Assembly: GCA_029258925.1 (NCBI GenBank)
Contig: JAPDJV010000004.1
Coordinates: forward strand, 4,645 to 68,644
Source of the DNA: Thermoproteota archaeon
Lineage (GTDB): Archaea; Thermoproteota; Thermoprotei_A; EX4484-217-1; JAPDJV01
Direction of reading: 5' to 3'
DNA: 64,000 nt
The translations under genes were made by a program, and so were the position numbers. The notes under the pieces are model-generated. The model saw only the letters and a program-made list of their open reading frames with translations, had not been told where the DNA came from and searched no databases. Below, piece by piece: positions 28,818-64,000 of this stretch (position 1 is the stretch's first letter; every line of letters starts with the position of its first letter).

Positions 28818-28819
28818 TA

Positions 28820-29668: not shown

Positions 29669-29718
29669 CCATTTCCACCTCCAAACACCATTACCATAAT
29701 TACGTGAAGCACGGGAAA

Positions 29719-30645: not shown

Positions 30646-30649
30646 AAAT

Positions 30650-30970: not shown

Positions 30971-30972
30971 GG

Positions 30973-33383: not shown

Positions 33384-33647
33384 AAACTCTCCATCTCCAT
33401 AAACAAACAGTTCAACGCATTTCCTCGGAGATTCAGCGCTACTTTATATAAGGGTTTATATTTTAATTTTAAAGCTGAGGTAGTGAAATGGCTTGCCATA
33501 AGCTTAAGGGTATTCTCAGACTAGCAAACGTGTTCAGCGTTAACTTGAGTAGAATATCTATTGTACCCGGAACAGTTTACGCTATGGTTGACGGGAGAAG
33601 AGCTCTGTGGAATCGGATTAATATCATATTTAGCCGCTAGGAGGTGA

Positions 33648-34661: not shown

Positions 34662-35733
34662 TCCACCTTAAGGGCTTAATGTAGTCTCTTCCACCTGCCT
34701 CGAAAGATCCAACAACTATCCTATGGTACTCTTCTCCCCTCCTGATGTCTCTCACATGCTCAAGTTTGCCGTAAACCAGTATTTTCTCTCCTGGAGACGC
34801 TAGGTCGCAGTATAGTCCCTCGTAGCTTGTGACTTCGACAATATTCCTGCTACTGGGCCCCTCAACAACTTTCACATAGTCTACGAGGTATGTTGCTGGG
34901 AGGAATATGGAGTCGGAGCTATCTACAACCCTTGCAACAGCTTTAACCATCCCTATCCCCCTGAAAACTCTATCTCCATAGTTCTCCGTAACCTCATCCT
35001 CCCTCTTAACAGGGTGAACGGAGAACTGTCTTCCCCTAAATAAGGCCCTATTCCACTTATCCCTACCATATAACATTCTTGCCTCGCTCAATGTGAGGGG
35101 ATGTATTTTAACAATATTCTCAGCCCACTTCTCCAGAATACTGCCACTCGCCATTTCGAATCCTGATTTAGGGTCTGAATACAGTTCTAGTAGAGCATCC
35201 TTTACCTTCAAGCTCTCCCGTCTACCGTAAACTATTAGATCTATGTCGGAGAACTCCACGTTATGTATTTTAAGTAGTATGGAGCCCGAGATCCCCATTG
35301 AAGTAGGGGGCACACCCGACTTCTCAGAGAGTATTGAAACTATTTCGATAACCTCTTCTTCTAAGAGGTCTGCGGGTGACCTCAATATTTCAGCGAGTCT
35401 CTCCTCAGGTCTGTAATGTTTCTTAATCTTATTTTTTGGAACCTCGATTAACTTGAACCCCAGTACTCTATCATACGTAATGTAATCTGGGTACATTTTT
35501 TCCAAGAACTCCATCACCCTTCCAACGCCTTCGGCACTGTAGTATGGAAGTATTCTCCCATACAACGTGCCTCTCTTAGACCACTTAACTCTATGTCCGG
35601 CATCGTATCCTGGAACATACTTCAAGTAAGCTATTACCCTATCCGGTGGATGGATGTTTCCTATGACACAGAACATGAGGCCCTCAAGGGTTTCAAGGAA
35701 GTCTCTGTCAGCGAACTCTCTCAAATCAATCAC
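34648..35733 (-). CDS. Predicted nucleotidyltransferase (COG1665-like), paralog 2
   Basis: GNIHPP..AYLKYVP, GISGSIL..SDIDLIVYG, GLYCD..GKLE. Confidence 0.8.
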   Translation of the reverse strand: MIDLREFADRDFLETLEGLMFCVIGNIHPPDRVIAYLKYVPGYDAGHRVKWSKRGTLYGRILPYYSAEGVGRVMEFLEKMYPDYITYDRVLGFKLIEVPKNKIKKHYRPEERLAEILRSPADLLEEEVIEIVSILSEKSGVPPTSMGISGSILLKIHNVEFSDIDLIVYGRRESLKVKDALLELYSDPKSGFEMASGSILEKWAENIVKIHPLTLSEARMLYGRDKWNRALFRGRQFSVHPVKREDEVTENYGDRVFRGIGMVKAVARVVDSSDSIFLPATYLVDYVKVVEGPSSRNIVEVTSYEGLYCDLASPGEKILVYGKLEHVRDIRRGEEYHRIVVGSFEAGGRDYIKPLRWIKGS

Positions 35734-37180: not shown

Positions 37181-37203
37181 CTTGACTTAGAGCTTGTATA
37201 GAA

Positions 37204-37881
37204 TTAAGTAGTCTCATTATTATTGATTTTTCCCAGAATCCTCATTAAAACAAGCCTAGTTCTGGGATTACAGCCTATTCTGAGAGCTTCCTCCAAGTCC
37301 TCGGGGTAATCCAAGTCTACTCTAACAGTATTCTTAGAGTAAACTCTTACAGCTATGCCTCTCTCAATAGCTTTAGCAAGATTTACCCAGAAACTTCCAA
37401 CACCGAAAACAGGCTTAATCACGTTTGGCGGCTTCAAAAGTATTATGTTTGTTCCCCAATCTCTTGCTGGCGATAGAACAATGGCTTTAACATATTTTTC
37501 CGCTAGCGAAACTATTTCCTGGAAGTCTTTCGAGGATGCACAAGGTATGTCTGCTACAGTTATAATAATGCTTTCAGCACTAGGATATGTTTTCTCAATA
37601 TAATCTATTGCCTTCCTAATAGCCTCAACTCTCCCGACGCCCTCGTCGAGCAACACATCACACTTACTCCACTTAGAATAGTACTCTCCGATCCTTGTGG
37701 AAGGAGTCACAATTATTACTCTATCGACGATTTTCGAAAGTTCTTCAACGACGTCCTCGAACATTGCTCTAACTAACTCGGCCCTCTCCCTTAATCCGAC
37801 CCTCCTAGCCAGCCTCTTCTTAGATTTCTCGAAGTCCTTGACAGTAACTATACCTATTAATCCAGTATTCAAAGGTCTCAC
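37204..37881 (-). CDS. cofC: 2-phospho-L-lactate/PEP guanylyltransferase (F420 biosynthesis)
   Basis: VKDFEKSKKRL, AMFEDV, ADIP, GTN, FG.GSF, DLDYPEDL. Confidence 0.88.
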   Translation of the reverse strand: MRPLNTGLIGIVTVKDFEKSKKRLARRVGLRERAELVRAMFEDVVEELSKIVDRVIIVTPSTRIGEYYSKWSKCDVLLDEGVGRVEAIRKAIDYIEKTYPSAESIIITVADIPCASSKDFQEIVSLAEKYVKAIVLSPARDWGTNIILLKPPNVIKPVFGVGSFWVNLAKAIERGIAVRVYSKNTVRVDLDYPEDLEEALRIGCNPRTRLVLMRILGKINNNETT

Positions 37882-37985
37882 TCCTATGAGGAAATCAGTT
37901 AGTTGGCGCTTAAGTATTATTGGGTCATTTTGACTCTTATAGTATATTAAAAGTTAGCTTATTGTTACAGGTGCGCGATTTGTAT

Positions 37986-39233
37986 ATGATCCAGGGCTGG
38001 GAGAAGAAGGTTATTAGAGGGGATATTCAGAAGTTTAATGTGCCGTCGGGATGGCCGTTTGAACCAGGAGACTACAAGGTTGGAAACCCTTATCATCCAG
38101 CTGCTGTCGTGGTACCGTTGGGTTCGCCCAGACTGGAGTCTAAGGCTCTTGAATACGGTTGTGCCATAGTTGGAAGATGTAGGACAGCTAACATAGGTAT
38201 AGAGAAGCTTGTGTGCAATGTTGTGTCAAACCCTAATATAAGGTGGCTCGTGGTAGTAGGCCCGGAATCCGAGGGGCACCTCAGCGGGCAGGCAATAATC
38301 TCTCTTATTGAGAGAGGTGTTCACCCGGATACGAAGAAGATAATTGGAGCGAAGGGTCCTTCCGCTAGAATACCTAACATACCGATTGAAATTGTCGAGA
38401 GGTTTAGGAGGCAGGTTAGAGTAGTGGACATGCTGGGTGTTCTAGACGAAGATCTCTTGAAGGCTGTTTTAAGGGGGGTTGTTCAGGAGCCCTGGAATAA
38501 GGTTGAAGTAAAGGTTAAGGGTAAAAAGTATGTCCTGTACGATCCGGGAGCATACTTAGATGAGCCTCCAATAATAGTCTCACTGGAGAAACTTTTCTCA
38601 GTTAAGGGTGTGAGAGTAGAGTCGACGTCATATACTCAGACAACTATAATTGCCAGAAGCATAGGGGAAGCATACCCGTACATAGTTTGGCTATTGGATC
38701 ACGGCTCATTTGTTGAATACGTTGACGAAAGGGGCTCCAGGGTAAGAGAACTTCTCAACATACTAATACATGTGAGGAAGCCTCTGGCCGAACCAATGGT
38801 TCCCAGAGAATACAATATCTTGTCAAGAAGCGAGCTGGAAGAATACGCTAAAACGTATCTGAATCCAAGTAGGAGGGGCTTCGAGTACACTTATGGTGAG
38901 AGAATAGTGGCGTATCCTACTAGAGTAAACCAGCTAGAATACGTTGTCAAAAAGCTCTCAAACAACTACAATACTAGGAGAGCAGTTATTGTGACCTGGT
39001 ATCCTCCTAAAGACACCGTGGTAGATGAAGTACCGTGTTTAACCACAATAATGTTCAATTGCAGGAATGGAGTACTACACGAAACAGCTGTTTTAAGGAG
39101 CAACGACATGATCAGAGCTTGGCCTGCAAACGCGTACGCCCTAGCGAAGCTCCTGAAATACGTGTCCCTAAAAATAGGTGTTGAACCGGGAACCCTCACC
39201 ACTCTAAGTATAAGTGGCCACAAGTATCTCTAA
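37986..39233 (+). CDS. Fusion protein: MtrA-like corrinoid-binding domain plus archaeal thymidylate synthase
   Basis: N-half GWPFEPGDYKVGNP, CRTANIGIEK..NVVSNPNIR, EGHLSGQ, ERFRRQV, YDPGA. C-half FEYTYGER, TRRAV..W, VPCL, RSND..AWPAN, SGHKY. Probable start at 37986 after AGGTG; the track ORF begins at 37920. Confidence 0.9.
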   Translation: MIQGWEKKVIRGDIQKFNVPSGWPFEPGDYKVGNPYHPAAVVVPLGSPRLESKALEYGCAIVGRCRTANIGIEKLVCNVVSNPNIRWLVVVGPESEGHLSGQAIISLIERGVHPDTKKIIGAKGPSARIPNIPIEIVERFRRQVRVVDMLGVLDEDLLKAVLRGVVQEPWNKVEVKVKGKKYVLYDPGAYLDEPPIIVSLEKLFSVKGVRVESTSYTQTTIIARSIGEAYPYIVWLLDHGSFVEYVDERGSRVRELLNILIHVRKPLAEPMVPREYNILSRSELEEYAKTYLNPSRRGFEYTYGERIVAYPTRVNQLEYVVKKLSNNYNTRRAVIVTWYPPKDTVVDEVPCLTTIMFNCRNGVLHETAVLRSNDMIRAWPANAYALAKLLKYVSLKIGVEPGTLTTLSISGHKYL

Positions 39234-52047: not shown

Positions 52048-52827
52048 ATGCCGTTTGATCCAGTAAGGTTTGCCAAAATAGTTGAGGAAAGTGTTTCAAG
52101 AATTAGGCTAGGTGTTGTGGAGAGAAGGTATGCCAGGTTTAGGGGTGACAGGTGGTATGGTGGGATAGCAACAGGAGACGTTGTAGGATGCAATCTCAGA
52201 TGCGTTTTCTGCTGGGCTTCAACCATGAGAGACCACTTGAAGTGCAAAGGCTTCTACTGTTCTCCGAGGAAAGCTTATGGGAGACTTGTTGGAATAGCCA
52301 GTTCGAGAGGATTCTTTAAAGTTAGGCTGAGCGGGGGAGAACCTACTATAGCATGGGAGCACGCTAAGAGCGTTGCAGAGCTCATCGTTAAAGCGGGTTT
52401 GAGATTCGTTTTGGAAACAAACGGCATATTGATAGGTGCAAGACCCGAAATAGCACAGGATATCGCTGAAATGGAGGGCGTGGTAGTCAGAGTTTCCATT
52501 AAGGCAGCTAACCCCAAAACATTTGAAAAGCTTACAGGGGCTAGAAGAGAGTTTTTCTGGATGCAGCTTAAGGCATTAGAGAACCTCTTGGAGGCTGGCC
52601 TAGTGCCTGGCGAAGAATTTTATCCAGCAATAATGCTCAGCTTTAATGATGACAGAGAAATTTCATGGCTCGAGGAGAAGATTGCAAGCATAGATCCGGT
52701 TCTAGTAGAGTATGTGGATCGAGAATATGTCATAATGTATCCCAGAGTCAGGAGACAGCTTGAGGAAGCAGGCATAAAGCCCAGGAAATACTATTCTCCC
52801 AACGGGATTCCAAGAGAGATGGTGTAA
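52048..52827 (+). CDS. Radical SAM protein (COG5014-like)
   Basis: WYGGIATGDVVGCNLRCVFCW, SGGEP, LETNG. Confidence 0.88.
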   Translation: MPFDPVRFAKIVEESVSRIRLGVVERRYARFRGDRWYGGIATGDVVGCNLRCVFCWASTMRDHLKCKGFYCSPRKAYGRLVGIASSRGFFKVRLSGGEPTIAWEHAKSVAELIVKAGLRFVLETNGILIGARPEIAQDIAEMEGVVVRVSIKAANPKTFEKLTGARREFFWMQLKALENLLEAGLVPGEEFYPAIMLSFNDDREISWLEEKIASIDPVLVEYVDREYVIMYPRVRRQLEEAGIKPRKYYSPNGIPREMV

Positions 52828-53240: not shown

Positions 53241-54404
53241 CTAATAATAATCGTATTCTATGTTTGAGAGTATGTGAACATTCCCTATGCTAACCCTCCT
53301 CAACCCGGCTCTCCTAGAAGCTTTAAGACACTCCTCTGCATGCCTCCTACTCGTTGTCGGAAGATCGCTCATCAAGTAGTCTGGGTGGAACGCTAGTAGC
53401 CTATAAGGTACATTGGGGTTCAGGGAAGCTATGAACTCAGCTATCTTCTCGACTTCACTAACACCAACATATCCCGGCACTAGAAGAGTGCTAACAGTTA
53501 CTAGCGGGACCTCGGGTCTCTCATCGAATCTCCTAATAGCTCTCTCCAAATTTTCGAAGATTTTCTTGCAGTCTACTCCAGTTAAAGCCCTGTATATTGT
53601 GGGGGTCCAAGCCTTAATGTCGAATTTAACTATTCCGCCAGTCTCGAGACTGAGCTCAACAGCTTTATCGAGAAAAACATTATTCATTAAACCATTAGTT
53701 TCCCAGCAAACTCTGAGAATTCTTCCTCTTTTTTCCTCAACCATTATCCTGGATGCTTCAAGAGCATGTTGCATTTGCGGCGAGGGATCTCCCCCAAAAT
53801 AGCATACGCATGAAACCCTATCGTTCACTGCCGATGCAAGTTCTCTTGCAGTACGTATAGGCGAGAGCTCCCTAGTCATATTCCTGTACTGCCAGTTCTG
53901 GCAGTATAGGCAGTCTAGGTTGCATGCACCATAGAATACTGCTAGATTATAATAGCCTCTCTCAGCTCCACGACTACTATAACTGTACTCAGGATAACCT
54001 ACACCAGTACAGCCTGGGCAAACCCAGTCTGCAACACAGTTTGTTGGAAGAGGATCATAATACCATGTAACAACTCCTCTATCAGGTGTACCAGCAAGCC
54101 TGACAATTCTGCCATCCCTGTTCTCGACGAGACCGCAGAAACCCTTCCCCCCGGCGGGAATAATACAATTGTTCCCGCACAAGCCACATGGAACTCCACC
54201 GGGATCTCTCGGAGGCTCACCGGGTAAACCAAACCTGCCCCTACTCTCCCTGTGAGCATCTAAAATAATCTTCAATGCCTCCACGCCGTTCTCAACAAGA
54301 CACTTGTTGCAAACGCCTAGAGCATCACTTATAACAATAGACCTACTGCCACAAAGTTTACACTCCTTCTCTTCCGCCCACCTAGAACTCAAAATCCAAA
54401 TCAT
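53241..54404 (-). CDS. Radical SAM protein, PflA/AmmeMemoRadiSam-like
   Basis: GACNLDCLYCQN, N-terminal CxxC pairs, GGDP, ETNG, LLAFHPDY. Confidence 0.85.
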   Translation of the reverse strand: MIWILSSRWAEEKECKLCGSRSIVISDALGVCNKCLVENGVEALKIILDAHRESRGRFGLPGEPPRDPGGVPCGLCGNNCIIPAGGKGFCGLVENRDGRIVRLAGTPDRGVVTWYYDPLPTNCVADWVCPGCTGVGYPEYSYSSRGAERGYYNLAVFYGACNLDCLYCQNWQYRNMTRELSPIRTARELASAVNDRVSCVCYFGGDPSPQMQHALEASRIMVEEKRGRILRVCWETNGLMNNVFLDKAVELSLETGGIVKFDIKAWTPTIYRALTGVDCKKIFENLERAIRRFDERPEVPLVTVSTLLVPGYVGVSEVEKIAEFIASLNPNVPYRLLAFHPDYLMSDLPTTSRRHAEECLKASRRAGLRRVSIGNVHILSNIEYDYY

Positions 54405-54777: not shown

Positions 54778-55608
54778 TTACTTAACGTTTACGACGTCTA
54801 GTTTCATGTCTAGGAGTGGAGCGTCTATTATTTCCTTGCCTACATCGATTATGTCAACGTTTTTCTCTATAATTTCGGGTATATTGCGGATCTTTATGTT
54901 TCCACCGAAAGCTAGTTTAATTTTGCTTCTCACATTAAGTTCTCTCAGTTTTCTATCGACTTTCTCAACATCTGCTAGATTGCCTGTGTCCACCATGATT
55001 ATGTCTGCTCCGTGAACTACTGCTTCAACAGTCTCCTCTTCCAAGCTCATTGTTTCTCCTCTAATTTGAACGACTTTTACTCTATTCTCGAATTTTCTGG
55101 CTGCTTCCAGGGCTTTAGCTATTCCACCGAACATTCTAACATAGTTTTTGTCAATGTACACGAAGGGCTCATCGGTTATTCTTATGCCTACTCCACCAGT
55201 TCTTATGGCCTCCCTCAGCAACTCCTTTACTTCAATAGGCATTTTCTTCCATGCGCCGCAGACAACTCTTATTTTACCTCTTGAAAGCTCTACAGCTCTT
55301 CTAGCTGCTGTTGCTACACCTGAGGTCTTAGCTATGATTCCAATAAGGTGGTCTTCTGCTAAAGCCACTTGCTTCGGGTTCCCTCTTAAAACAACTATTA
55401 CATCGTTCTTCTTCACTTCCGTCCCAGAAGGCATTATTTCCAGTATTTCTAAGCCTAGTTTCAGAGCTTTCTCCTTCAATCTCTCCATGCAAGCTAGGAT
55501 ACCGTCTTGCTCGACTCTAATCACAGCTGTAACTCTTCTAGACATTATGTCCTCGAATATTATGTCGCGTATGTCAGTTACTTCACGCAATTCCCCAAAA
55601 CACTCCAC
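54778..55608 (-). CDS. NadC/ModD-like phosphoribosyltransferase (divergent)
   Basis: SGVATAAR, GADIIMVD, FGGNI, VDIIDVG, LDMKL; canonical TRKT and KDNH motifs are altered. Confidence 0.8.
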   Translation of the reverse strand: MECFGELREVTDIRDIIFEDIMSRRVTAVIRVEQDGILACMERLKEKALKLGLEILEIMPSGTEVKKNDVIVVLRGNPKQVALAEDHLIGIIAKTSGVATAARRAVELSRGKIRVVCGAWKKMPIEVKELLREAIRTGGVGIRITDEPFVYIDKNYVRMFGGIAKALEAARKFENRVKVVQIRGETMSLEEETVEAVVHGADIIMVDTGNLADVEKVDRKLRELNVRSKIKLAFGGNIKIRNIPEIIEKNVDIIDVGKEIIDAPLLDMKLDVVNVK

Positions 55609-55662
55609 ACTACAATAATTTCAAATAATATTATGAAAAAATGTTATGTAATTGAGGGGCCC

Positions 55663-57132
55663 CTACTTACATAATACTTCTTCTGGGGGAATCCCCCTCT
55701 GCTTTAACCATTTCGGCATGAGCTTCTTCTCTACTTCCTCGTCTACTTCAGGTGCTTTCTCCACCAGGTATTCTGCTAGCGATTTACTCATGTTTATTGC
55801 GCCGTAGACTCCGTCGAATACTATCACTTTATCAGTCTTCCCTATCTTATATGCGAACTCCATAGCTGTTTCGAGGTCCTCTGCTATTACAGCGTGCTTC
55901 ATGAACTCTATGTTCTGTGGGTCACGGTTGTACACGTCTGCCTGCTCCTTTGTTACAACTATTACTGGAAACATCTTCGACCAGAACACGCTTGGATATC
56001 CTCCCCAAGCATAGTTTATTACTATAACCTTTATTGCAGGGTTCACTGGTGGAACCTCTGGGATCAAAGGTCTGTCTTTTTCATCGTAGTATGCTTCAGT
56101 ATACCATGTGTATGGTGGTAGGGGGTTGTCTAAGTCGAATAAGTCTATGTTTAGGCCCGTGAAGTTAGCGAATATTACTCCACCCGAAAACGTGTATGGT
56201 ATTGGCGTTCTATAGTCTAAGACGACTATGCATTCGTCTATTTTACTCAGCAGCCTCATGACTTTTCCATAGTATCTCAGGTTATCTACTATTATCCTAC
56301 GATCCAGTCTATCGAGATCGTTATCGGCGTAAACTCCTAGTATACCTACTGGTGAAGCTCTTAGGAATACTGAGAAAGCCCACTTGTCCTGAACGAACTT
56401 CGAGTTGAATATTGCTCTTGCAACGAAGTTTGCTCCCCTTGGTCCAAGATTATGGTGGTACGCTGATCTTGTTTCAAGTCTAGCGTACGACATGCCGAAT
56501 GGTTTAAATGCTCTATCCACATGTCTATGGAAATGTACTTCTCTCACATCAGTGTTATGTGCATGCACTATTTTATCCGCATCATAAGCTGCTCTGAGAC
56601 CATAGAATGTTCCGATCTCGGTCTCTATGGGTACTCCCGGATCCAAGGGTGAAATTCCATACGCTTTCCCATTGAAGTATTCGTCCAACTTGAACCTCTT
56701 AATATATTCCTCGGACTCTCTATGTCTTAACCCTACGCCGACCTTCAACCTTATGTTTGTAACTCCAGTTTTACGTTCGATGACGTCCTTTATCGTCTTG
56801 AGCATTTCAGCGTATGGTTCTCCTCCAAGAATGGTGAAGCCGTGGTGTGATCCGAGTATGTTCACTGAGCGTGCTCCTTTAATTGGAGACATATCGACGT
56901 TTTCCAAGGCCTCCTCGGTAGCGTCTCTAATAGCTTTTGGATTAGGTGGAGGCCATAATGGTTTAGGTATGTCTGGGAAGAGTTCAGATATCTTAATGGA
57001 AACCATGTTAGGTAGCTCGGATGCACGTTTCTTGACGTATTTTGGGTCCACCCCATATATTGAGGGAGCTGGTGGTAATGGAGCTATGGGGGGGCCTATT
57101 ACTCTACTTTTATCGATTTTATATTGAGGCAT
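55663..57132 (-). CDS. Hypothetical protein, remote LarA/DUF362-like fold
   Basis: SVNILGSHHG, GVGLRH and AYDADKIV..N..VHFH resemble LarA N-terminal domain elements; fold call is tentative. Confidence 0.55.
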   Translation of the reverse strand: MPQYKIDKSRVIGPPIAPLPPAPSIYGVDPKYVKKRASELPNMVSIKISELFPDIPKPLWPPPNPKAIRDATEEALENVDMSPIKGARSVNILGSHHGFTILGGEPYAEMLKTIKDVIERKTGVTNIRLKVGVGLRHRESEEYIKRFKLDEYFNGKAYGISPLDPGVPIETEIGTFYGLRAAYDADKIVHAHNTDVREVHFHRHVDRAFKPFGMSYARLETRSAYHHNLGPRGANFVARAIFNSKFVQDKWAFSVFLRASPVGILGVYADNDLDRLDRRIIVDNLRYYGKVMRLLSKIDECIVVLDYRTPIPYTFSGGVIFANFTGLNIDLFDLDNPLPPYTWYTEAYYDEKDRPLIPEVPPVNPAIKVIVINYAWGGYPSVFWSKMFPVIVVTKEQADVYNRDPQNIEFMKHAVIAEDLETAMEFAYKIGKTDKVIVFDGVYGAINMSKSLAEYLVEKAPEVDEEVEKKLMPKWLKQRGIPPEEVLCK

Positions 57133-57148
57133 TCAGGATCCCCCACAC

Positions 57149-57742
57149 CTAAACTTTTGCTTCTCCTCTAGTTAACTTCTTCAATAACATTTCATCCTCG
57201 TCGAAGTAGAATCCTCTAGCCCTATACTTCTCCCTAACCTTTTTTGGTATCTCGAACACTGTTGGACAGATACCGTACCATGCATGTCTACCTGGCTTGG
57301 GTTTAGGCTCAATGCCTACTGCTCTGAGCAACCTGAGTATTGGCTGGATACACTCCACTTTACACCCAGTCCTAACGCCGGTCATTCTAGATATTTCCTC
57401 AGGAGTCTTGGCTCCTAAGATTATTGCTGCAGCAACCTCTTTAGCCCTGGTTCCAGTACAGAAGCATATTATCTGCTCCGGGTGGAAGCCAGCATTCCTA
57501 CATATTTCCTCAACTTTCTTAAAGTCTACCTTGCTCACGTCGACCCTTACAATTTTTGGTTCTGGTAGGCGCTCCATTGTTATAGCGTAGTTCGGACATC
57601 TCTCATAGCATGCTCCACAACCCATGCAAGTATTTGGGTCTATCTTTGGGTATTCACCTGGCGTCCAAGATATTGCCTCCGTGGGACAAATGGACCAGCA
57701 CAAACCGCACTTTACGCATTTCGAGTAATCTGTTTTAGCCAT
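57149..57742 (-). CDS. 2[4Fe-4S] ferredoxin fused to BFD-like [2Fe-2S] domain
   Basis: CVKCGLCWSICP, CMGCGACYERCP, CFC..GCKVEC. Confidence 0.88.
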   Translation of the reverse strand: MAKTDYSKCVKCGLCWSICPTEAISWTPGEYPKIDPNTCMGCGACYERCPNYAITMERLPEPKIVRVDVSKVDFKKVEEICRNAGFHPEQIICFCTGTRAKEVAAAIILGAKTPEEISRMTGVRTGCKVECIQPILRLLRAVGIEPKPKPGRHAWYGICPTVFEIPKKVREKYRARGFYFDEDEMLLKKLTRGEAKV

Positions 57743-57818
57743 GAACGCTACATACCTTACCGTGGCAGAACCCTCCGTAAAAGTTTTAACATGTGTAATT
57801 AATTTTGTTTAACGATAT

Positions 57819-58730
57819 TTAATCTTTATGTGCGCAATGTTTCATTTTAGACCTTAACACCTCCCTTAATTCCCCAGCAATCAAATTAGCTATCTGCTCC
57901 TTAGACAAATTATTGTTTAACCCCCTGATAAGAGCATTTAAACCGATTTTCACCTCATCTGTTGGTCCGGGCAACGCTATTATTAGGGACTCCCCTACTC
58001 TTCCAACACCTATCCTCACACCATCCTTAAAGTGCCTCCCCTTACCCTTATCATATTTTACTATGTAGGGTGTGGCCGCATTGGGGTCGACTCTCAGAAG
58101 ACCTTCAATAGTCTTATCCTTGGCCTCGGCTCCAACGCCTCCCGTGAAAATTATGAGTCCATACCCGTTATCCAGTGCTCTCTGAATGGAATTCGATATA
58201 ACGTATTCGTCGTCGTCCAGTACTCCGCCCACCGTGACATCGTAGCCTAGCTTAGTTAATTCTTCCTTGATTAGAGGAGAATTAGTGTCCTTAATTAAGC
58301 CCTCCTTAACTTCTGAACCCGTGGAGAATACTATGGCTCTCTTAGAAATCCTCTTCCTCATCTCCTTGACTATCTGCACGGTTCTCTCAAGAACTTCTTT
58401 AGCCTCGCTTTCCTCGACAGCTATTAAACCTAGGATGCCCTCTGAGTGAATTGTTGTCTGAGGAGTCACTTTAACACCGGGTACTTGCGATAATTTTCTC
58501 AGCAACTCGTTTTTCTTGCCTATGATTTGCTTAGCTGAGATGGTGCTCCTAAGTATGTCTACTACCATCAATTTCTCTCTAACGTCCGTAACCATAACCT
58601 CGCTCTCATCTAAGCCTAGAACCTCGGCAACAGCTCTGGCAACGTCTTTCAAGTTAACATTTGACAACTCTATGTTCTCAAACCATATCTCAGTTTTCAT
58701 CAACAAATTTAACTCGACATCTTCTTCCAT
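57819..58730 (-). CDS. Molybdopterin-binding (MoCF/CinA N-terminal) domain protein with extra N-terminal domain
   Basis: STGSEV..G.IKDTN, DDD, IFTGGVG..D.T, ALPGP. Confidence 0.8.
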   Translation of the reverse strand: MEEDVELNLLMKTEIWFENIELSNVNLKDVARAVAEVLGLDESEVMVTDVREKLMVVDILRSTISAKQIIGKKNELLRKLSQVPGVKVTPQTTIHSEGILGLIAVEESEAKEVLERTVQIVKEMRKRISKRAIVFSTGSEVKEGLIKDTNSPLIKEELTKLGYDVTVGGVLDDDEYVISNSIQRALDNGYGLIIFTGGVGAEAKDKTIEGLLRVDPNAATPYIVKYDKGKGRHFKDGVRIGVGRVGESLIIALPGPTDEVKIGLNALIRGLNNNLSKEQIANLIAGELREVLRSKMKHCAHKD

Positions 58731-58951: not shown

Positions 58952-59743
58952 TTACTTGAATCTAATGGTCACTGAGCCGAGTTTGTCGAATGTTGCTCTC
59001 ACAATGTAGCCTGGTTTAATGTCTACTGCCGCAATAAGTGATCCCGAAAGGATTACTTCTCCAGATTTAAGGTAAGTACCGTAGGAGGCCAGTTTGTTAG
59101 CTAGCCACGCTACTGATGAAACAGGATTGCCCATAACAGCTGCTCCAGCAGCTGTTGAAATGATTTCCCCGTTAACTTCGAATACTAGCCCTACTAGGCG
59201 TAGGTCGATGTTCCTAACATCTACTATTCTACCTCCGAGAACGAACCTGGCTGAAGAAGCGTTATCGGCTATGGTGTCCTGGATCTTAATCTTCCAATCC
59301 CTAATACGGCTGTCAATAATTTCTAGAGCAGGCATCACTCCCTCTGTTGCGCGTAGGACATCTGCGGGAGTTATTCCCGGACCCTTCAAGTCATCTTTTA
59401 ATACGAAGGCGATCTCAGCCTCTATCTTAGGCTGAATGAGCTCCCTCAAGTCTATGCATTCTCCCTCCAATACGATCATTCGATCAGTTAGGTGTCCGTA
59501 GTCGGGTTCGTTAACCCCGAAAAGTTTCTGCATACCTTTACTCGTTAACCCTATCTTCTTACCAACGATCTTCTCTCCCCGAGTAATCTTCGCGTCTACA
59601 TTTTTTAATTGAATTCTATAAGCATCTTCAATACTTATTTGCGGATATGTTTTTGTTAATGGATCGATGGGTTCGCGCTTCTCCTCAGCTTCCAGAAGCA
59701 TCCTAGCTAATTCATCTATTGGTATAGGGTTGTGTGTAGTCAT
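58952..59743 (-). CDS. 2-keto-4-pentenoate hydratase (FAH superfamily)
   Basis: GKKIGLTS, EPDYG, KIEAEIAF, LEIIDSR, DTIADNASS, ILSGS; start placed at ATG 59743 after AGGTG. Confidence 0.9.
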   Translation of the reverse strand: MTTHNPIPIDELARMLLEAEEKREPIDPLTKTYPQISIEDAYRIQLKNVDAKITRGEKIVGKKIGLTSKGMQKLFGVNEPDYGHLTDRMIVLEGECIDLRELIQPKIEAEIAFVLKDDLKGPGITPADVLRATEGVMPALEIIDSRIRDWKIKIQDTIADNASSARFVLGGRIVDVRNIDLRLVGLVFEVNGEIISTAAGAAVMGNPVSSVAWLANKLASYGTYLKSGEVILSGSLIAAVDIKPGYIVRATFDKLGSVTIRFK

Positions 59744-59895
59744 AGCATTACACCTACAAACTATAATTGCCATTATTAAAGTATTTAAAGTTAAATTCAA
59801 ATATTATATAGACCACATTTCGTGATCTGAGCTGTAAAGGATATATGTTTTAATATGCTAACTTTGGCCATAATATATTTAAATTTGTACATCAA

Positions 59896-60705
59896 TTGAT
59901 TAACGGTGGTCTCATGATCGAGCTTCGCCCTCCCATAATATCAAATCTTAACGTGAATCTAGAAGGTAGAGTTGCAATAGTAACAGGTTCTAGTAAGGGT
60001 ATAGGTCGTGCAATAGCATTATCTCTGGCTATGAGCGGTGCAGACGTTGTCATCAACGGGAGGAAAAAGGAGGATTTGATGAAGACTGCTGAAGAAATTA
60101 AGGCTTTGAATAGAAGAGTTCTACCAGTAGTAGCGGATGTGAGTAAGTGGGATGATGTTAAGAGGATGGTTGACGAGACAATAAAGCATTTTGGCCATAT
60201 TGAGATAGTTGTCAACAATGCTGGAATCCTTGGACCAGTAAAACCCGTACATGAAATCACTGTGGAAGAGTGGGACAAGGTATTAGCAATTAACTTGGGG
60301 GGAGCATTTCTAGTCATAAAAGCCGTAGTACCATACATGATTAAACAGAAATATGGTAAAATAATTAACATATCATCTGTAGCAGGTGTTGAAGGAAACA
60401 AGAATATGGTACCATACTGTGCATCCAAAGCTGCACTAATAGGGTTAACTAAGGCGCTGGCGGAGGAACTGGGACCCTACGGGATAAGAATAAACGCTGT
60501 TTGCCCAGCACTAGTGGAGAAAACCTATTTGACTGAGAGCATGCCACCTGAGCAAAGAGAATTTCTAGCGAAGAAGATACCTTTAGGCAGGTTATGTAGG
60601 TTAGATGAGGTTGCCGATTTAGTAAAGTTCCTAGCATCAGATGCATCAGACTTCCTAACAGGGTACGCGTTTGTTTTAGCTGGTGGAAGAGCTAGATGCC
60701 ACTAA
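59896..60705 (+). CDS. Short-chain dehydrogenase/reductase (FabG-like)
   Basis: TGSSKGIG, NNAG, ISS, YCASK. Confidence 0.92.
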   Translation: MINGGLMIELRPPIISNLNVNLEGRVAIVTGSSKGIGRAIALSLAMSGADVVINGRKKEDLMKTAEEIKALNRRVLPVVADVSKWDDVKRMVDETIKHFGHIEIVVNNAGILGPVKPVHEITVEEWDKVLAINLGGAFLVIKAVVPYMIKQKYGKIINISSVAGVEGNKNMVPYCASKAALIGLTKALAEELGPYGIRINAVCPALVEKTYLTESMPPEQREFLAKKIPLGRLCRLDEVADLVKFLASDASDFLTGYAFVLAGGRARCH

Positions 60706-60763: not shown

Positions 60764-62155
60764 TCAATAGTCTCCTACGATTTCCCTAGCTTTTTCAATA
60801 ATGTTCTCTGGTATCGATATTACTTCGGGGAAGACGCCCTTCAGTCTAGGGGGCAGAGGCTTTGTTGCATCTATGCCTCCCCGCGCAGTAAATCCGTTGA
60901 GTGAAGAAGGGTCTAGAGGCGATCCACGGGCACCCTCAACTACAATGAGATCTCTGTCTAATTGAGAACGCGTTGCTATAGCCCACAATACTTCATCCTC
61001 ATCAAATATGTCTACGTCACTGTCCACTACAACAACGTGTTTAACTACTTCGTAAGCGCTTAAAGCTGCAAGTATGGCGTTTTTCCCATCTCCCTCACGC
61101 ATCTTCTCTATTTGAATATAGCAGTGGAATCTTCCGCAACCGGATGGAGGCAAGTAAACGTTTCTAACACCCGGCACCACGTTTTTAACAGTGTGGAATA
61201 TTCTACTCTCAACAGGTATGCTTCCTAGGAAGAAGCAGTCTCTATGTCCCGGAATCACGTCGAGGTAAATGGAGTTTTTCCGCATGTTTATGGCTCTAAC
61301 AACTATGACTCTTCCATCCCTGTTCACCGGGCCATATGTTTTAGGGAATTCTCCGAAAGGCCCCTCAGTCTCTCTCACATTAGGTAAGACTTCCCCCTCA
61401 ATCACTATTTCTGCATCAGCCGGTATTAGGAAGCTCTTACCCCAAGTTGTTGAGGGGGTCAGTCTTAATGGTTCGCCTAGAACCCCGCCGATAACATGGT
61501 ATTCGTCAACTGTAATAGGCTGAACCGTCTGGGTTCCAAGGTAGAAGGCTGGGTGGTGGCCTATCACTATTGCTATGGGCATCCCCAAGTTCCTATCCTC
61601 ATATCTCCTATGGTAAATATCAGTGTGTCTACCTTTAATGAATAGTGAGACGAGTTTCCTAGGACCCTTATACATGTCTCTAATAGTTGCAGCATTATAG
61701 CCGTACTCCGGATCCCAGACAACGTGTACGCCGCCAGTAATGTATGGCCCAGCATCTTTCTCGTAGTGCTTTATTATTGGAAGCATCCTTAAGTCGGCTT
61801 CCTCCCCTGTCAACACGACTTCTTTAACAGGTGCATCGTTTTCATCGACCACTACAGGCTCTACTCCCCTAGTCTCCCTCTTATAATACTCTAGGGCGAG
61901 GAGTCTGTTGCTAGTGTTCAGAGCCCATGCACATCTATCTCTGCTGGCAAACAAGTTTGTTACTAACGGTATTCTAGACTTTGATCCCAGGAGATTGTTG
62001 ATGTTCTTGAAGAATAGTATTGGATACTTACCTTGTTTACCAAGAAGCCACACAATAGCCGCTATCTCCAGACTCGACTCAATATTAGCCTCTATGGTCA
62101 ACAAGTTATCTGGATGTTCTCTAGAAATAAACTCTAAGTAACTTCTTAAATCCAT
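60764..62155 (-). CDS. UbiD-family prFMN-dependent (de)carboxylase
   Basis: DAGPYIT, PADAEIVIEG, EGPFGEF, VDSDVDI, WAIATR, LDPS, IDATKP. Confidence 0.92.
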   Translation of the reverse strand: MDLRSYLEFISREHPDNLLTIEANIESSLEIAAIVWLLGKQGKYPILFFKNINNLLGSKSRIPLVTNLFASRDRCAWALNTSNRLLALEYYKRETRGVEPVVVDENDAPVKEVVLTGEEADLRMLPIIKHYEKDAGPYITGGVHVVWDPEYGYNAATIRDMYKGPRKLVSLFIKGRHTDIYHRRYEDRNLGMPIAIVIGHHPAFYLGTQTVQPITVDEYHVIGGVLGEPLRLTPSTTWGKSFLIPADAEIVIEGEVLPNVRETEGPFGEFPKTYGPVNRDGRVIVVRAINMRKNSIYLDVIPGHRDCFFLGSIPVESRIFHTVKNVVPGVRNVYLPPSGCGRFHCYIQIEKMREGDGKNAILAALSAYEVVKHVVVVDSDVDIFDEDEVLWAIATRSQLDRDLIVVEGARGSPLDPSSLNGFTARGGIDATKPLPPRLKGVFPEVISIPENIIEKAREIVGDY

Positions 62156-62626
62156 GGTTTTCCCCCAACCAGAATAGTCCTAGTACTTTATTGTAGATGA
62201 AACCAGTATATTAAAATACCTTGATAAAGTCTCTCCAGATGGAAGCAAGTACATGGTGCATAGTGCTTAAGCAATCTTTAAATTGGCTAAATATTTTGAT
62301 GGCCATTGTCACGACTACGGTCATCACGGCGATGAGAGCCGTCAAATCATGTAGATGTTTGCCCATACTCTCAGACAATTGTTCGACTGTTTTCTCTCGA
62401 AGACTTGTGAAGGCTTGAAATCGAGTTATTAAAGTTATAAAGATTGCCGGACTTACTAATGAAAGCCGAGATCGTAGCTGGCGTGAGGTAAGTTTCTCAT
62501 GTAACAATACTTCTTCTCCTGCAATAAGATTACGTAAAGTAAGTTAGTATTGAATAATTATTGCTGATCGGCTGTAGCCTGAACTGGTGGTAGAATTAAT
62601 ATAAAATAAAAATATTGTTGTTTTAT

Positions 62627-64000
62627 TTATGCTATTTTACCTATTTTAGCTAGCTCGTCTGCTACGTCTGCTAGTCCTAGTTCTTCTAGCTTCTTCCTCG
62701 TTATGTAGCCTGTCTTCTTATCCCAGCCGAATGCTTCATATGCTTCGTCGAGGAGTTCATCGAACTTTATGACAGCCTGTCCCTTTGCTGGTCCCGTGGT
62801 TACTGGCTCTAGCAGTCTCTTTGGCAGAGTGTCGTGTCTCCTGTCGAATCCTTCTCTAATGTTGAATGCTCTCTTCAAGTTCCATGCACGCTCGGCTGCT
62901 ACCAGCAGGTCTTTGCCAGTTACTTCTATGCCTGTTAGAGAGCTGTATAGTCTGGCCAGTCTCTTAGGCGTTAGACAGCTGTCCTCGGAGCCCCATAATG
63001 GGAATCTGCATATACCTAGGCTTTCGGCTAGCTCACCGTGTAGTGCTAACAATCTATATGCTATTCCTCTCTTAACACCTACCTCAGCATACTTGTCTGG
63101 TGGTGGCCATGGTAGTCCAAACTCTCTTAAACCGTTATCTAATGGTATGAAGTCGTATGCTCCAGCCCAGTTCGGATGCATGTGACATGCTCCTCTGGGT
63201 GTAACAGCGTACTGTATTACGAAGTTCCTTGACTCTCCTCTTGGATCATGTGCTGGAACCTCTAGTCCCTTAACGTGGACAGCGAACTCATCGGCACCCT
63301 TACCTATCTTCTCCGCTGCTTTCTTAACTCCTTCAGCCAGAACGTCTCCGAATCCCTCTCTCTTAGCTATTGCATCCACTAACGTTAATATTACATCTGG
63401 GTCTCCCCATCTAAGCTTTAAGCCGCCAGTGTCCTCCTCGGTTATGTATCCTCTCTCGAATGCTTCAATAGCGAAAGCAATCACGTTACCCGTTGATATA
63501 GTGTCTAGACCATAATTGTTGCACAAGTAGTTTGCTCTCACTACCGCCTCTAAGTCTGTTAGTAGTGATTGTACGCCTAGCATATCTGAGGTCTCGTACT
63601 CTGGTCCCTCATGTAGTGGTGTCGGATACTTGCCGTCTGGCACCCAAGAGTATCTACCGCAACCTATCGTGCAGCCGAAGCAAGCTCTCCTCTTAACCAA
63701 GTACTTCTCGGCTAACATGTCTCCTGACATGCTGTCTGCTTCAGGGAAGTAGGTTGTCTTGAAGTTCATTGTTGGGAGTGCGCCTGCAGCATTCAACGCG
63801 TTAACTAAGCCTATAGTGCCCAGCATACCTAGGATTTCCCTGAAAACATACTTCTTCATTGCCTCGTGTGCTTCCAAGGCGTCTTCGAAGAACTTGTCTG
63901 GTTTCGCTGGTACAATGCTCTTCTCGCCGAAAACCACGATAGCCTTCAAGTTCTTGGATCCCATTACAGCACCGCCGCCGCATCTTCCAGCAGCTCTATC
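62627..64000 (-). CDS. Aldehyde:ferredoxin oxidoreductase family (W/Mo); 5' end lies beyond the window
   Basis: AAGRCGGGAVMGSKNLKA, CFGCTIGC, GPEYET, GLDTISTG, HDPRG, RGACH. Confidence 0.93.
   Translation of the reverse strand, partial: DRAAGRCGGGAVMGSKNLKAIVVFGEKSIVPAKPDKFFEDALEAHEAMKKYVFREILGMLGTIGLVNALNAAGALPTMNFKTTYFPEADSMSGDMLAEKYLVKRRACFGCTIGCGRYSWVPDGKYPTPLHEGPEYETSDMLGVQSLLTDLEAVVRANYLCNNYGLDTISTGNVIAFAIEAFERGYITEEDTGGLKLRWGDPDVILTLVDAIAKREGFGDVLAEGVKKAAEKIGKGADEFAVHVKGLEVPAHDPRGESRNFVIQYAVTPRGACHMHPNWAGAYDFIPLDNGLREFGLPWPPPDKYAEVGVKRGIAYRLLALHGELAESLGICRFPLWGSEDSCLTPKRLARLYSSLTGIEVTGKDLLVAAERAWNLKRAFNIREGFDRRHDTLPKRLLEPVTTGPAKGQAVIKFDELLDEAYEAFGWDKKTGYITRKKLEELGLADVADELAKIGKIA

Follow-up and report, generated by a model that had tools for sequence, protein, structure and literature searches.

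Within the window, a 64,000-nucleotide stretch of a Thermoproteota archaeon contig, four minus-strand open reading frames were confirmed at 54778 to 58730, separated, 5' to 3' along the operon, by gaps of 76, 16, and 54 nt (Table 1). They encode a MoCF-domain protein (MoCF-like), a ferredoxin, a 489-residue protein that we call H489, and a divergent NadC-like protein. Of 80 related loci in other species, 78 contain the ferredoxin gene, 68 the NadC-like gene, and 65 the MoCF-like gene; for the 44 full-length loci (at least 13 kb), the counts are 44, 42, and 41. The module is thus syntenic across related loci, and the four-gene arrangement is not due to chance. A hydratase gene lies 221 nt upstream on the same strand and is linked in 56 of the 80 loci, and the operon is probably larger than four genes.

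Table 1. Genes of the H489 locus and the lar genes of the window
Feature	Position	Strand	Basis
larB	15350-16132	+	Pfam AIRC
larC	16107-17408	+	Pfam Ni_insertion
Divergent NadC-like PRTase-fold protein, 276 aa, GTG start	54778-55608	-	QRPTase_N + QRPTase_C
H489, 489 aa, putative NPN-binding catalytic subunit (H200, K210, E220, T221, H226)	55663-57132	-	LarA fold
Ferredoxin, 197 aa	57149-57742	-	Pfam Fer4 x2 + Fer2_BFD
MoCF-domain protein, 303 aa	57819-58730	-	Pfam MoCF_biosynth
MhpD/DmpE/NahK-like 2-oxopent-4-enoate hydratase or 4-oxalocrotonate decarboxylase	58952-59800	-	TIGR03220, PDB matches
Short-chain dehydrogenase, divergent from hydratase gene	59896-60705	+	adh_short E 2e-64
UbiD-family decarboxylase, nearest solved relative PtHmfF	60764-62155	-	6H6V score
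Aldehyde:ferredoxin oxidoreductase, runs off window	62627-64000	-	AFOR_C

H489 has no Pfam or NCBIfam match, and its translation carries the motifs GSHHG (94-98), GLRH (134-137), VHFHRH (199-204), and YHH (225-227). Its AF2 model (pLDDT 84) matches LarA, a lactate racemase with a nickel cofactor, by Foldseek at an E value of 6e-9; 18 chains are found at E ≤ 0.001, and the best 12 of these 18 are all LarA or LarA-like. With VIA-align, 11 LarA entries reach Z scores of 18.0 to 19.0 over 313 to 353 residues, and the next, unrelated entry scores 6.1. No sequence method gave a significant link: phmmer and hmmsearch of H489 against the PDB found no LarA match, hhalign probabilities for H489 and LarA were only 6% and 14%, and none of 24 family members matched the Lar_N, LarA_C, or DUF362 profiles at E ≤ 1. 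The sequence-only reading had called H489 a remote LarA-like protein, and the fold bears this out. From the fold and its conserved residues we infer, with good confidence, that H489 is a client of the LarA type that binds the nickel-pincer nucleotide (NPN).

Across 197 H489 relatives the pattern H-x9-K-x9-ET-x4-H is kept. K210, H226, R197, R222, and E139 are invariant (197/197), and H97 (195), H202 (194), T221 (194), and H200 (188) nearly so. The spacing H-x9-K-x15-H, mostly with T at K+11, occurs in 14 of the 16 canonical LarAs fetched and also in Mar2 and LarA-Ip. Aligned by hhalign to these 16 LarAs, H489 is co-linear over 327 columns; H200, E220-T221, and H226 fall on the His, ET, and His of LarA, and the LarA Lys is placed three residues before K210 by way of compensating gaps. 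PMC12393405 describes a Lys as the NPN tether, a His as the residue that completes the coordination of nickel, and both His108 and His174 as catalytic. Mapped onto H489, the NPN-binding residues correspond to one Lys and one His kept at the LarA spacing. The His108 column holds Arg136, and the two-histidine racemase site is therefore not kept.

H489 thus has in common with LarA and its homologs (5HUQ, 6C1W, 2YJG, Mar2 6D6Z/7S91, LarA-Ip 9EIA/9EID) the two-domain fold, linkage to larB, larC, or larE, and the H-x9-K-x10-T-x4-H pattern that comprises second catalytic His, Lys tether, and Ni-binding His. It differs in having GSHHGF in place of the LarA SDxTR motif, in being about 60 residues longer, in its obligate ferredoxin partner, and in its context, which is ring or enoate catabolism rather than 2-hydroxy-acid isomerization. 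Single-histidine LarA-like NPN enzymes (9Q3K, 9Q3J), described in the preprint PMC12393405, also depart from the two-histidine site. They are of similar length (450-505 aa) and reach Z scores of 18.4 to 18.6 to the H489 model. However, they have Asn at the His174 equivalent and still match Pfam Lar_N and LarA by phmmer, whereas H489 keeps the His174 equivalent, apparently lacks His108, and has a ferredoxin.

The ferredoxin has two Fer4 motifs and a Fer2_BFD domain (E 1.8e-9, residues 91-140), arranged as an N-terminal 2x[4Fe-4S] region, a BFD-like [2Fe-2S] domain, and a conserved C-terminal WYG...F.F..D tail; 13 Cys are invariant among 25 sequences. Its gene lies directly upstream of H489 in all 75 loci with room for it. 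A complex with H489, modeled on alignments built in this analysis, scores 0.94, compared with 0.00 for the best of three controls, and passes a mark that 58 of 80 solved complexes reached, as did 2 of 110 mismatched pairs. Model runs share at least 95% of contacts, with a partner pLDDT of at least 88. The predicted interface joins H489 residues 203, 205-206, 218-224, and 226-233 to ferredoxin residues 94-97 and 125-134, with C95, C127, and C131 among these, so that the [2Fe-2S] loops sit on the His226-bearing helix of H489. Several invariant residues in this interface, H226 included, could be conserved for docking rather than cofactor binding. The ferredoxin coupling proposed from the sequence is upheld by the synteny and the model, and an obligate complex is very likely.

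Genes for NPN synthesis are also linked to the module. In 13 of the 80 loci larB, larC, or larE lies within 6 kb, in agreement with the linkage expected of a second larBCE client. The window has larB and larC on the same contig, 38 kb from the module, and their orthologs in locus L001 score as LarB and LarC equivalogs. LarB is found above cutoff in 41 of 50 H489 genomes and in 17 of 17 H489-bearing Moorellia; it is nearly universal in Moorellia (26/28), and co-occurrence with H489 there is therefore not discriminating. The nine H489 genomes without LarB over cutoff all carry canonical LarA homologs, which points to gaps in the assemblies more than to a lack of NPN.

The two remaining module proteins fall below every equivalog cutoff. 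The NadC-like protein shares both QRPTase domains with NadC and ModD (QRPTase_N E 4e-11, QRPTase_C E 2.5e-20), and the family conserves WKK, R143, DKN, and DTG throughout. It is not an ordinary quinolinate enzyme: it scores 109 bits against a nadC cutoff of 198 and, aligned to human QPRT, has lost three base-binding residues (R102 to D, R138 to W, H160 to I). The MoCF-like protein has a CinA/MogA/MoaB-like C-terminal domain (residues ~130-275; MoCF_biosynth E 4.7e-19, residues 134-268) with the TGGxG...D motif, and differs from MogA, MoaB, and CinA-N by an additional N-terminal domain of ~105 aa; its NCBIfam matches are all below cutoff, and Foldseek ranks CinA (3kbq) best, then MoeA, Mog, and MoaB. 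In L073 its gene runs in the same direction as larB and larC, and in L001 and L076 it lies among lar genes, a placement that favors a cofactor role. That both proteins supply the cofactor is a reasonable guess, which we hold with rather less than even confidence.

The bacterial module is part of an operon that is IclR-regulated and also encodes a BenE transporter and three enzymes, namely 2-oxopent-4-enoate hydratase, 4-hydroxy-2-oxovalerate aldolase, and acylating acetaldehyde dehydrogenase. Among the 44 full-length loci the hydratase is found in 42, the dehydrogenase in 35, the aldolase in 33, IclR in 31, BenE in 25, and an M24 protein in 20; aldolase and acylating dehydrogenase pass their equivalog cutoffs. 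The window hydratase scores 332 bits against TIGR03220 (cutoff 409), and its best PDB matches are 2-oxopent-4-enoate hydratase and NahK (~205 bits each). The window short-chain dehydrogenase has a 79%-identical counterpart next to the L001 hydratase gene. Several loci, and the window's as well, are flanked by AOR or Fe-ADH genes; in L086 a full AFOR gene with AFOR_N (639 aa) is preceded by a 169-aa polyferredoxin. No DmpG-type aldolase over cutoff was found in the window's genome. Methanomassiliicoccales and Asgard loci have the four-gene core alone, with a hydratase elsewhere in only two of five such genomes. The H489 step is likely catabolic, feeding the hydratase/aldolase pathway. The earlier view holds for its LarA-like, ferredoxin, and lar parts; the sequence-only reading had missed the catabolic operon and its link to HmfF decarboxylases. 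Taken as a whole, the operon therefore appears to degrade a substrate and not to serve mainly for making a cofactor.

That link comes from the UbiD-family protein adjoining H489 in L034, which scores 582 bits to 6H6V, the furan-2,5-dicarboxylate (FDCA) decarboxylase PtHmfF. The window UbiD is 43% identical to this HmfF ortholog and scores 279 bits to 6H6V, versus 186 bits for the next family. Only 10 of 51 H489 genomes carry a close HmfF ortholog (57% identity or higher), and in 8 of these 10 the gene is 2.6 to 19.5 kb from H489. We tentatively take 2-furoate as the most likely candidate substrate, with confidence clearly below even. In the accessible portions of two reviews, the anaerobic furfural pathway is given as unknown and ending in acetate.

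Our best explanation, held with nearly even confidence, is that H489 and the ferredoxin form a tight complex, a reductase in which ferredoxin electrons drive the NPN-dependent ring opening of a heteroaromatic 2-carboxylate, with 2-furoate the most likely substrate. H489 would be the catalytic subunit of this two-protein oxidoreductase, holding NPN most likely with Lys210 as thioamide tether and His226 as nickel ligand. Low-potential electrons would travel via the two [4Fe-4S] clusters and the BFD-type [2Fe-2S] cluster to NPN, which would deliver a hydride to the imported substrate. With 2-furoate and 2[H], attack at C5 followed by C5-O elimination could yield 2-hydroxypenta-2,4-dienoate in one step. 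The linked hydratase would convert this to 4-hydroxy-2-oxovalerate and, in bacteria, aldolase and acylating dehydrogenase would produce pyruvate and acetyl-CoA. Where present, HmfF would act upstream by turning furandicarboxylate into furoate, as would AOR and alcohol dehydrogenases in their own steps, and the NadC-like and MoCF-like proteins would most likely feed LarB/LarE/LarC a pyridine nucleotide precursor (e.g., nicotinate to NaMN to NaAD). To our knowledge, net redox chemistry is known for no NPN enzyme.

The concept resembles that of the dearomatizing benzoyl-CoA reductases and the ferredoxin-dependent 6-hydroxynicotinate reductase, in which low-potential ferredoxin electrons reduce aromatic or heteroaromatic carboxylates in anaerobes. 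Those enzymes have folds and cofactors unrelated to H489 (FeS/ATP, W-pterin, flavin) and act on CoA esters or hydroxypyridines, and we know of none that uses NPN. The aerobic furfural/HMF pathway of Cupriavidus basilensis (HmfFG, HmfABCDE), as described in reviews, shares the upstream logic of aldehyde/alcohol oxidation, FDCA decarboxylation by HmfF, and attack on 2-furoate. There furoate becomes a CoA ester, is hydroxylated by a molybdenum dehydrogenase, and ends as 2-oxoglutarate, whereas the H489 operon is without CoA ligase or Mo-hydroxylase and its products would be pyruvate and acetyl-CoA.

Against the furoate model is that it gives the NadC-like, MoCF-like, and M24 proteins no pathway role, despite their presence in 42, 41, and 20 of the 44 loci. 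All three would have one if the substrate were a pyridine-2-carboxylate (picolinate, or dipicolinate after HmfF-like decarboxylation), a reading we consider unlikely. The NadC-like protein would use PRPP to form an N-ribosyl pyridinium, H489-ferredoxin would reduce the ring via NPN hydride, the ring would open to a 2-oxo- or 2-hydroxy-dienoate and phosphoribosylamine, and the MoCF-like and M24 proteins would handle the nucleotide remnant. In keeping with this, the NadC-like and MoCF-like genes are more tightly conserved than the lower pathway (33-35), and the NadC-like protein keeps three basic residues and the Asp/Glu of the PRPP site while lacking two Arg and one His, fitting a monocarboxylate base. 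Dipicolinate also matches furandicarboxylate in geometry, many hosts are spore formers, and dipicolinate is reportedly fermented anaerobically to acetate, propionate, ammonia, and CO2. However, one PRPP would be spent per substrate molecule, four electrons would be needed along with several steps that have no assigned enzyme, PtHmfF was characterized on furandicarboxylate and furoate, and placement of the MoCF-like gene with lar genes points to cofactor work; we know of no catabolic N-phosphoribosylation.

It is less probable still that H489 works as a redox-neutral NPN isomerase, racemizing or epimerizing a pathway 2-hydroxy acid, with the ferredoxin serving only in cofactor activation, protection, or maturation. 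The LarA fold and cofactor-holding residues are kept, and the characterized LarA homologs are all racemases or epimerases in the accessible text of PMC7583248, PMC11770544, and PMC12393405. Racemization, by the last of these, needs two histidines, and Arg occupies the His108 column; an obligate three-cluster ferredoxin has been reported for no other LarA group, its invariant upstream position and the [2Fe-2S] loops predicted on the cofactor helix also speak against this reading, and no 2-hydroxy acid of the lower pathway requires inversion. We give slightly less credence to the strong form of the sequence-only idea, a purely cofactor-making or salvage unit in which H489-ferredoxin acts on a pyridine nucleotide of the NadC-like and MoCF-like proteins and the catabolic neighbors are clients. 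The core-only archaeal loci, interleaving of the core with larB, larC, and larE in L001 and L076, and nucleotide-handling folds in two of the four proteins agree with it; yet H489 keeps the residues that hold the finished cofactor, the core is co-oriented with three catabolic enzymes (33 to 42 of 44 full loci) along with transporter and regulator, and the operon conserves no other candidate for making the hydratase substrate. Least probable of all, and very unlikely, is that the His/Arg-rich site of H489 serves a different metal or cofactor and H489 is no NPN protein. The absent sequence-level link to LarA, the many invariant His and Arg, and the nine genomes without LarB over cutoff favor this, but the LarA-specific spacing is kept, 13 of 80 loci have adjacent lar genes, and the canonical LarA homologs in those nine genomes suggest incomplete assemblies.

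The ferredoxin-driven ring-opening reductase remains our preferred reading. H489 is a widespread, unnamed LarA-fold protein, and its operon probably lets anaerobes degrade a ring-shaped acid such as 2-furoate.

The four genes at positions 54778-58730 lie on the minus strand with gaps of 76, 16 and 54 nt between them, and the co-oriented cluster described in the sequence-only reading is borne out by the ORFs and by Pfam and NCBIfam. They encode a MoCF-domain protein (MoCF303), a ferredoxin (Fdx197), the 489-aa protein H489 and a divergent NadC-like protein (NadC276). The motifs GSHHG, GLRH, VHFHRH and YHH are all found in the H489 translation. The interpretation placed on the cluster, a cofactor-making module with a remote LarA-like client, is partly supported overall; what stands is the lactate racemase (LarA) fold, the coupling to ferredoxin and the link to the lar genes. 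A scan for sigma-70 promoters and terminators was set aside as irrelevant to an archaeon. The region downstream of the NadC-like gene contains two radical-SAM genes, of which one is AmmeMemoRadiSam- or activase-like and stands 373 nt from the NadC-like gene; tblastn detected neither in the 80 H489-bearing loci examined from other species.

Features in the window, with the matches that identify them
Feature	Position	Strand	Match or content
MoCF303	57819-58730	-	Pfam MoCF_biosynth, residues 134-268, E 4.7e-19
Fdx197	57149-57742	-	Pfam: two Fer4 motifs and a BFD-like [2Fe-2S] domain
H489	55663-57132	-	Pfam and NCBIfam: none
NadC276	54778-55608	-	QRPTase_N, E 4.3e-11; QRPTase_C, E 2.5e-20
Hydratase	58952-59800		221 nt upstream of the core; TIGR03220 332 vs cut-off 409; DmpH 274 vs 351
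larB and larC, adjacent	15350-17408	+	larB/larC of NPN biosynthesis
Radical-SAM gene	53241-54404	-
Radical-SAM gene	52048-52827	+
98-aa ORF	62211-62507	-	No family; between UbiD and AOR
163-aa ORF	19383-19874	-	C-terminal part of Ni_insertion (LarC) only, profile 246-365
Methanopterin/F420-related block	22582-39233		Mch, GXGXG protein, amidohydrolase, molybdopterin oxidoreductase (formylmethanofuran dehydrogenase-like), Mtd, Ftr, DUF2193, F420 ligase-like, CofC-like, MtrA-thymidylate synthase fusion

More than 1400 relatives of H489 were found at E <= 0.001. The best 120 of these, from both Archaea and Bacteria, are 471-505 aa long at 62-90% identity, lack any Pfam domain and, where named, are called hypothetical or uncharacterised. 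The family spans 248 representative species, with archaeal and bacterial members sharing 60-70% identity. A search of cluster representatives (1.8 billion) returned 205 relatives and no recognisable LarA among them; likewise, Lar_N (PF09861), LarA_C (PF21113) and DUF362 have no match at E <= 1 in any of 24 family members, and neither phmmer nor hmmsearch, run against PDB sequences with H489 alone or with its profile, found LarA. Profile-profile comparison by hhalign is co-linear over 351 columns with seven LarA homologs and over 327 columns with 16, at probabilities of only 6% and 14%, while a shallow H489 alignment gave nothing against the LarA of the window's own genome. In a protein-language-model atlas H489 falls nearest to clusters of hypothetical proteins, and one of these clusters bears the automatic label 'LarA-like N-terminal domain-containing protein'. 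Fused forms of greater length (857-2445 aa) were looked for and not found, which is a weak indication, and in-frame stops within three Moorellia matches proved to lie upstream of residue 24, outside the gene.

An AlphaFold2 model of H489, built from 34 sequences (pLDDT 84, pTM 0.88), supports the earlier proposal of a remote LarA-like protein, as both Foldseek and VIA-align recover the two-domain LarA fold. With Foldseek, lactate racemase, malate racemase and single-histidine LarA-like proteins match at E 6e-9 to 3e-6 (best probability 1.00), with unrelated folds starting at E 4e-3. With VIA-align, 11 LarA entries align over 313-353 residues at Z 18.0-19.0, the next, unrelated, entry having Z 6.1. 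As modelled, H489 represents a new branch of the LarA fold, isolated in sequence.

The accessible text of PMC12393405 describes a lysine thioamide by which LarA holds its nickel-pincer nucleotide (NPN), a histidine that completes nickel coordination, and His108 and His174 as catalytic. Canonical LarAs from H489-bearing genomes carry the pattern H-x9-K-x15-H in 14 of 16 cases, with T at K+11 in most, and the PDB sequences of Mar2 and LarA-Ip share it. In LarA-Lp numbering we take the NPN-binding Lys and His to be Lys184 and His200. The H489 pattern reads H200-x9-K210-x9-E220-T221-x4-H226, so that K210 stands 10 residues after H200 and 16 before H226, as in 14 of the 16 LarAs. Among 197 distinct H489 sequences, K210 and H226 are conserved in all 197, T221 in 194, E220 in 193, H200 in 188 and R136 in 186. 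The hhalign alignment with the 16 LarAs, which is of low confidence, sets H200, E220-T221 and H226 opposite the LarA His, ET and His, the last of these nearly invariant in LarA. Mapping of the NPN-binding residues is thus upheld in part: H226 aligns with the LarA histidine and K210 has LarA spacing, but the same low-confidence alignment places the LarA lysine 3 residues before K210 through compensating gaps. It also puts R136 in the column of LarA His108, so that the two catalytic histidines are not both kept, and GSHHGF opposite the LarA SDxTR motif. We read the site, from these alignments, as one that could hold NPN but without the two-histidine arrangement of a racemase.

The ferredoxin gene is found in 78 of the 80 loci, and in all 75 loci with room for it, it shares the strand of H489 and ends less than 200 nt upstream. 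Thirteen cysteines are invariant among 25 ferredoxin sequences: eight for two [4Fe-4S] clusters, followed by C81, C93, C95, C127 and C131. A model of the H489-Fdx197 complex scored 0.94, the best of three controls 0.00, with at least 95% contact agreement between runs and a partner pLDDT of at least 88; among solved complexes 58 of 80 attain this mark, as do 2 of 110 mismatched pairs, counts that are only rough here, with custom alignments in use. Together with the gene order, this supports the proposed ferredoxin coupling, and the three-cluster ferredoxin is very probably an obligate partner of H489. In the confident part of the modelled interface, ferredoxin residues 94-97 and 125-134, which are the [2Fe-2S] cysteine loops, and 155-162 contact H489 residues 203, 205-206, 218-224 and 226-233, a stretch predicted to include the helix bearing E220, T221, R222 and H226. 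The modelled placement of the [2Fe-2S] loops on this helix fits electron delivery to the putative cofactor site. Since E220, T221, R222 and H226 fall within the predicted interface, their conservation could also reflect docking.

H489 is linked to the genes of NPN biosynthesis as well, as had been proposed. In 13 of the 80 loci, a larB, larC or LarE-like PP-loop gene is no more than 6 kb away from H489, and L001, the closest relative (90% identity), is arranged as hydratase-LarB-MoCF-Fdx-H489-NadC-LarE-LarC. Of 50 H489 genomes, 41 have a LarB above its cut-off; the nine others all carry canonical LarA homologs, which suggests that these assemblies are incomplete. In Moorellia, LarB is present in 17/17 H489-bearing genomes but also in 26/28 genomes overall, so there the co-occurrence is consistent with a link and does not discriminate. 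Canonical Lar_N is found in 49 of the 50 genomes, the sole exception being G003, and H489 is therefore rarely the only LarA-like protein in its genome. The genome of the window has one canonical LarA, on another contig (L081, contig 19). The Lar_N subgroup to which it belongs adjoins the H489 cluster in 7/80 loci (seen at L002, L010, L048, L051, L070 and L072); the tethering Lys is missing in 6 of 7 aligned sequences, in which GYGGSG-M replaces GG.K, and the subgroup is without the His174 equivalent while keeping the Ni-binding His. In the window, apart from larB and larC, a separate 163-aa ORF resembles a free-standing LarC2-like domain because it matches only the C-terminal part of LarC. The window also holds a methanopterin/F420-related gene block, and the nearest relative of its genome is labelled Desulfurococcales.

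NadC276 is, as anticipated, a divergent phosphoribosyltransferase and not an ordinary quinolinate enzyme. It scores 109.4 bits against the cut-off of 198.4 for the nadC equivalog TIGR00078. The quinolinate-binding basic residues of human QPRT are R102, R138, K139, H160, R161 and K171; in an alignment to that enzyme (2JBM), R102 is replaced by D, R138 by W, H160 by I and K171 by D with a neighboring D to K, whereas K139, R161 and the acidic residues of the PRPP site are retained. Across 52 family members, at least 95% keep W120, K121, K122, R143 and D153-K154-N155, and a DTG motif is conserved too; a monocarboxylate base would fit. A second NadC-like gene, on contig 2 of the window's genome (L087), was considered as the housekeeping NadC and rejected, as it scores 189 against the cut-off of 198 and has FEN in place of KDN; the genome may thus be without a canonical NadC. 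The L087 gene keeps the TRK and HR motifs and may be ModD, since a ModE-like regulator adjoins it. MoCF303 combines an N-terminal domain, for which a whole-protein Foldseek search gave no fold match, with a CinA/MogA-type domain that matches CinA (3kbq), MoeA, Mog and MoaB at E 1e-8 to 1e-6. All 13 of its NCBIfam matches are far below the cut-offs (for example, 73 vs 85 for the molyb_syn domain and 45 vs 293 for CinA-related), and in its TGGxG...D motif, T196, G197, G198, G200 and D205 do not vary among 25 sequences.

The pair can be read in two ways. LarB uses NaAD, and the NadC-like and MoCF-like proteins may supply a pyridine nucleotide for it, for instance by converting nicotinate to NaMN and then to NaAD. 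Alternatively, they may act on the substrate itself, activating a pyridine-2-carboxylate such as picolinate or dipicolinate by N-phosphoribosylation. In favor of cofactor supply, the MoCF-like gene is co-oriented with larB and larC at one locus (L073) and the NadC-like/MoCF-like pair is interleaved with lar genes at two others (L001 and L076).

All ORFs of the 80 loci were clustered, and genes were counted in the 44 full loci of at least 13 kb. A recurrent co-oriented bacterial operon emerges: an IclR regulator, then NadC-MoCF-Hyd-AcDH-Aldo-Fdx-H489-BenE-M24, at times followed by LarB-LarC, where Hyd is a 2-oxopent-4-enoate hydratase-like protein, AcDH an acylating acetaldehyde dehydrogenase and Aldo a 4-hydroxy-2-oxovalerate aldolase. 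The counts are 42 for NadC, 41 for MoCF, 42 for Hyd, 35 for AcDH, 33 for Aldo, 31 for IclR, 25 for BenE and 20 for M24, and the core genes are therefore syntenic elsewhere. Equivalog cut-offs are passed by the aldolase (488 vs 286 bits) and the dehydrogenase (426 vs 282), and in some loci BenE is replaced by Liv-type ABC or TRAP transporters. The presence of lower-pathway enzymes, a transporter and a regulator beside the module indicates a catabolic operon: the H489 module stands upstream of the classical 2-hydroxypentadienoate pathway, which leads to pyruvate and acetyl-CoA, and is accompanied by an organic-acid transporter and a regulator.

Loci of Methanomassiliicoccales and Asgard archaea hold the four-gene core only; a hydratase at another site turned up in 2 of 5 of these genomes, in one case adjoining a DmpG-like aldolase. 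An ORF of 242-290 aa without a Pfam match lies on the opposite strand upstream of the ferredoxin in these loci (L008:2370-3206, L009:97-933 and L012:372-1244; also L005 and L006). In the window, the hydratase beside the core matches hydratase 8ih6_A (206 bits) and decarboxylase NahK (205 bits) about equally in a PDB search, and beyond it lie an SDR, a UbiD decarboxylase and a tungsten-type aldehyde:ferredoxin oxidoreductase (AOR). No DmpG-type aldolase above the cut-off was found in the window's genome. The genome's M24 protein 9 kb past the window shares only 26% identity with the operon's M24, and the 98-aa ORF separating UbiD from AOR does not resemble the 81-aa ORF that Moorella loci have between HmfF and AOR. 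Amidohydro_2 genes (PF04909, to which ACMSD, LigI and LigW belong) occur near the linked hydratase at L001:683-1627, two genes away across the SDR, and at L084:2298-2765 of a Promethearchaeota MAG, as an immediate neighbor.

A further neighbor bears on the substrate. The UbiD directly downstream of H489 in L034 matches 6H6V with 582 bits; this structure is that of PtHmfF (PMC8988006, as accessible in part), which is described in the accessible text of PMC6644310 as the Pelotomaculum thermopropionicum enzyme that decarboxylates furan-2,5-dicarboxylate. UbiDs beside H489 in L034, L043, L045, L062 and L032 share 65-100% mutual identity. HmfF orthologs, at no less than 57% identity, are present in 10 of 51 H489 genomes, and in 8 of these 10 they are on the same contig as H489, at distances of 2.6, 3.3, 4.9, 6.8, 8.9, 10.1, 13.8 and 19.5 kb; the remaining two are on other contigs of fragmented assemblies. 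TRAP transporters, a UbiX-like flavoprotein and AOR flank the orthologs. The window's UbiD also has PtHmfF 6H6V as its best PDB match (279 bits vs 186 for the next family), at only 43% identity to the L034 ortholog. The operon of H489 is conserved and catabolic, with ties to both the lar genes and HmfF.

In the mechanism that the evidence supports best, H489 would be an NPN reductase driven by ferredoxin, and its substrate a heteroaromatic 2-carboxylate, most likely 2-furoate; that NPN is bound, which way electrons flow, what the substrate is and what the accessory proteins do are inferences. Adding two reducing equivalents to 2-furoate gives, on paper, 2-hydroxypenta-2,4-dienoate: hydride added at furoate C5, with elimination of the ring oxygen, would in a single step yield the compound that the hydratase uses. 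Pyruvate and acetaldehyde or acetyl-CoA are the products predicted. These would fit the acetic acid reported in the accessible portions of two reviews (PMC3223595, PMC6604932) for the two known anaerobic furfural degraders, both Desulfovibrio, by a route given there as unknown. Our literature search found no paper tying NPN or LarA to ferredoxin partners, to the H489 operon or to furoate. In its strongest form, the proposal is that H489 and its ferredoxin are the first net-redox NPN enzyme, an ATP- and CoA-independent, ferredoxin-driven reductase that opens 2-furoate directly to 2-hydroxypenta-2,4-dienoate, that this is the step long missing from the degradation of furfural, HMF and furandicarboxylate without oxygen, and that gene transfer has carried the route through anaerobic Bacteria and Archaea; we put this forward as a tentative idea that may well prove wrong.

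To our knowledge, the nickel-pincer cofactor occurs only in redox-neutral racemases and epimerases, and with an obligate ferredoxin partner its range would come to include electron-transfer catalysis. In the part of a 2024 mBio study available (PMC11796402), about 15% of genomes are given as having larB, larC and larE without a recognisable larA, and NPN clients as yet unknown are therefore to be expected. The H489 family, being large, widespread and invisible to Pfam Lar_N, is a concrete and testable candidate for such a hidden client. An anaerobic route for furfural and furoate, described as unknown in the accessible portions of the same two reviews (2011 and 2018; PMC3223595, PMC6604932), is wanted for the oxygen-free detoxification of lignocellulose hydrolysates, and the H489 operon offers a specific set of genes with which to test it.
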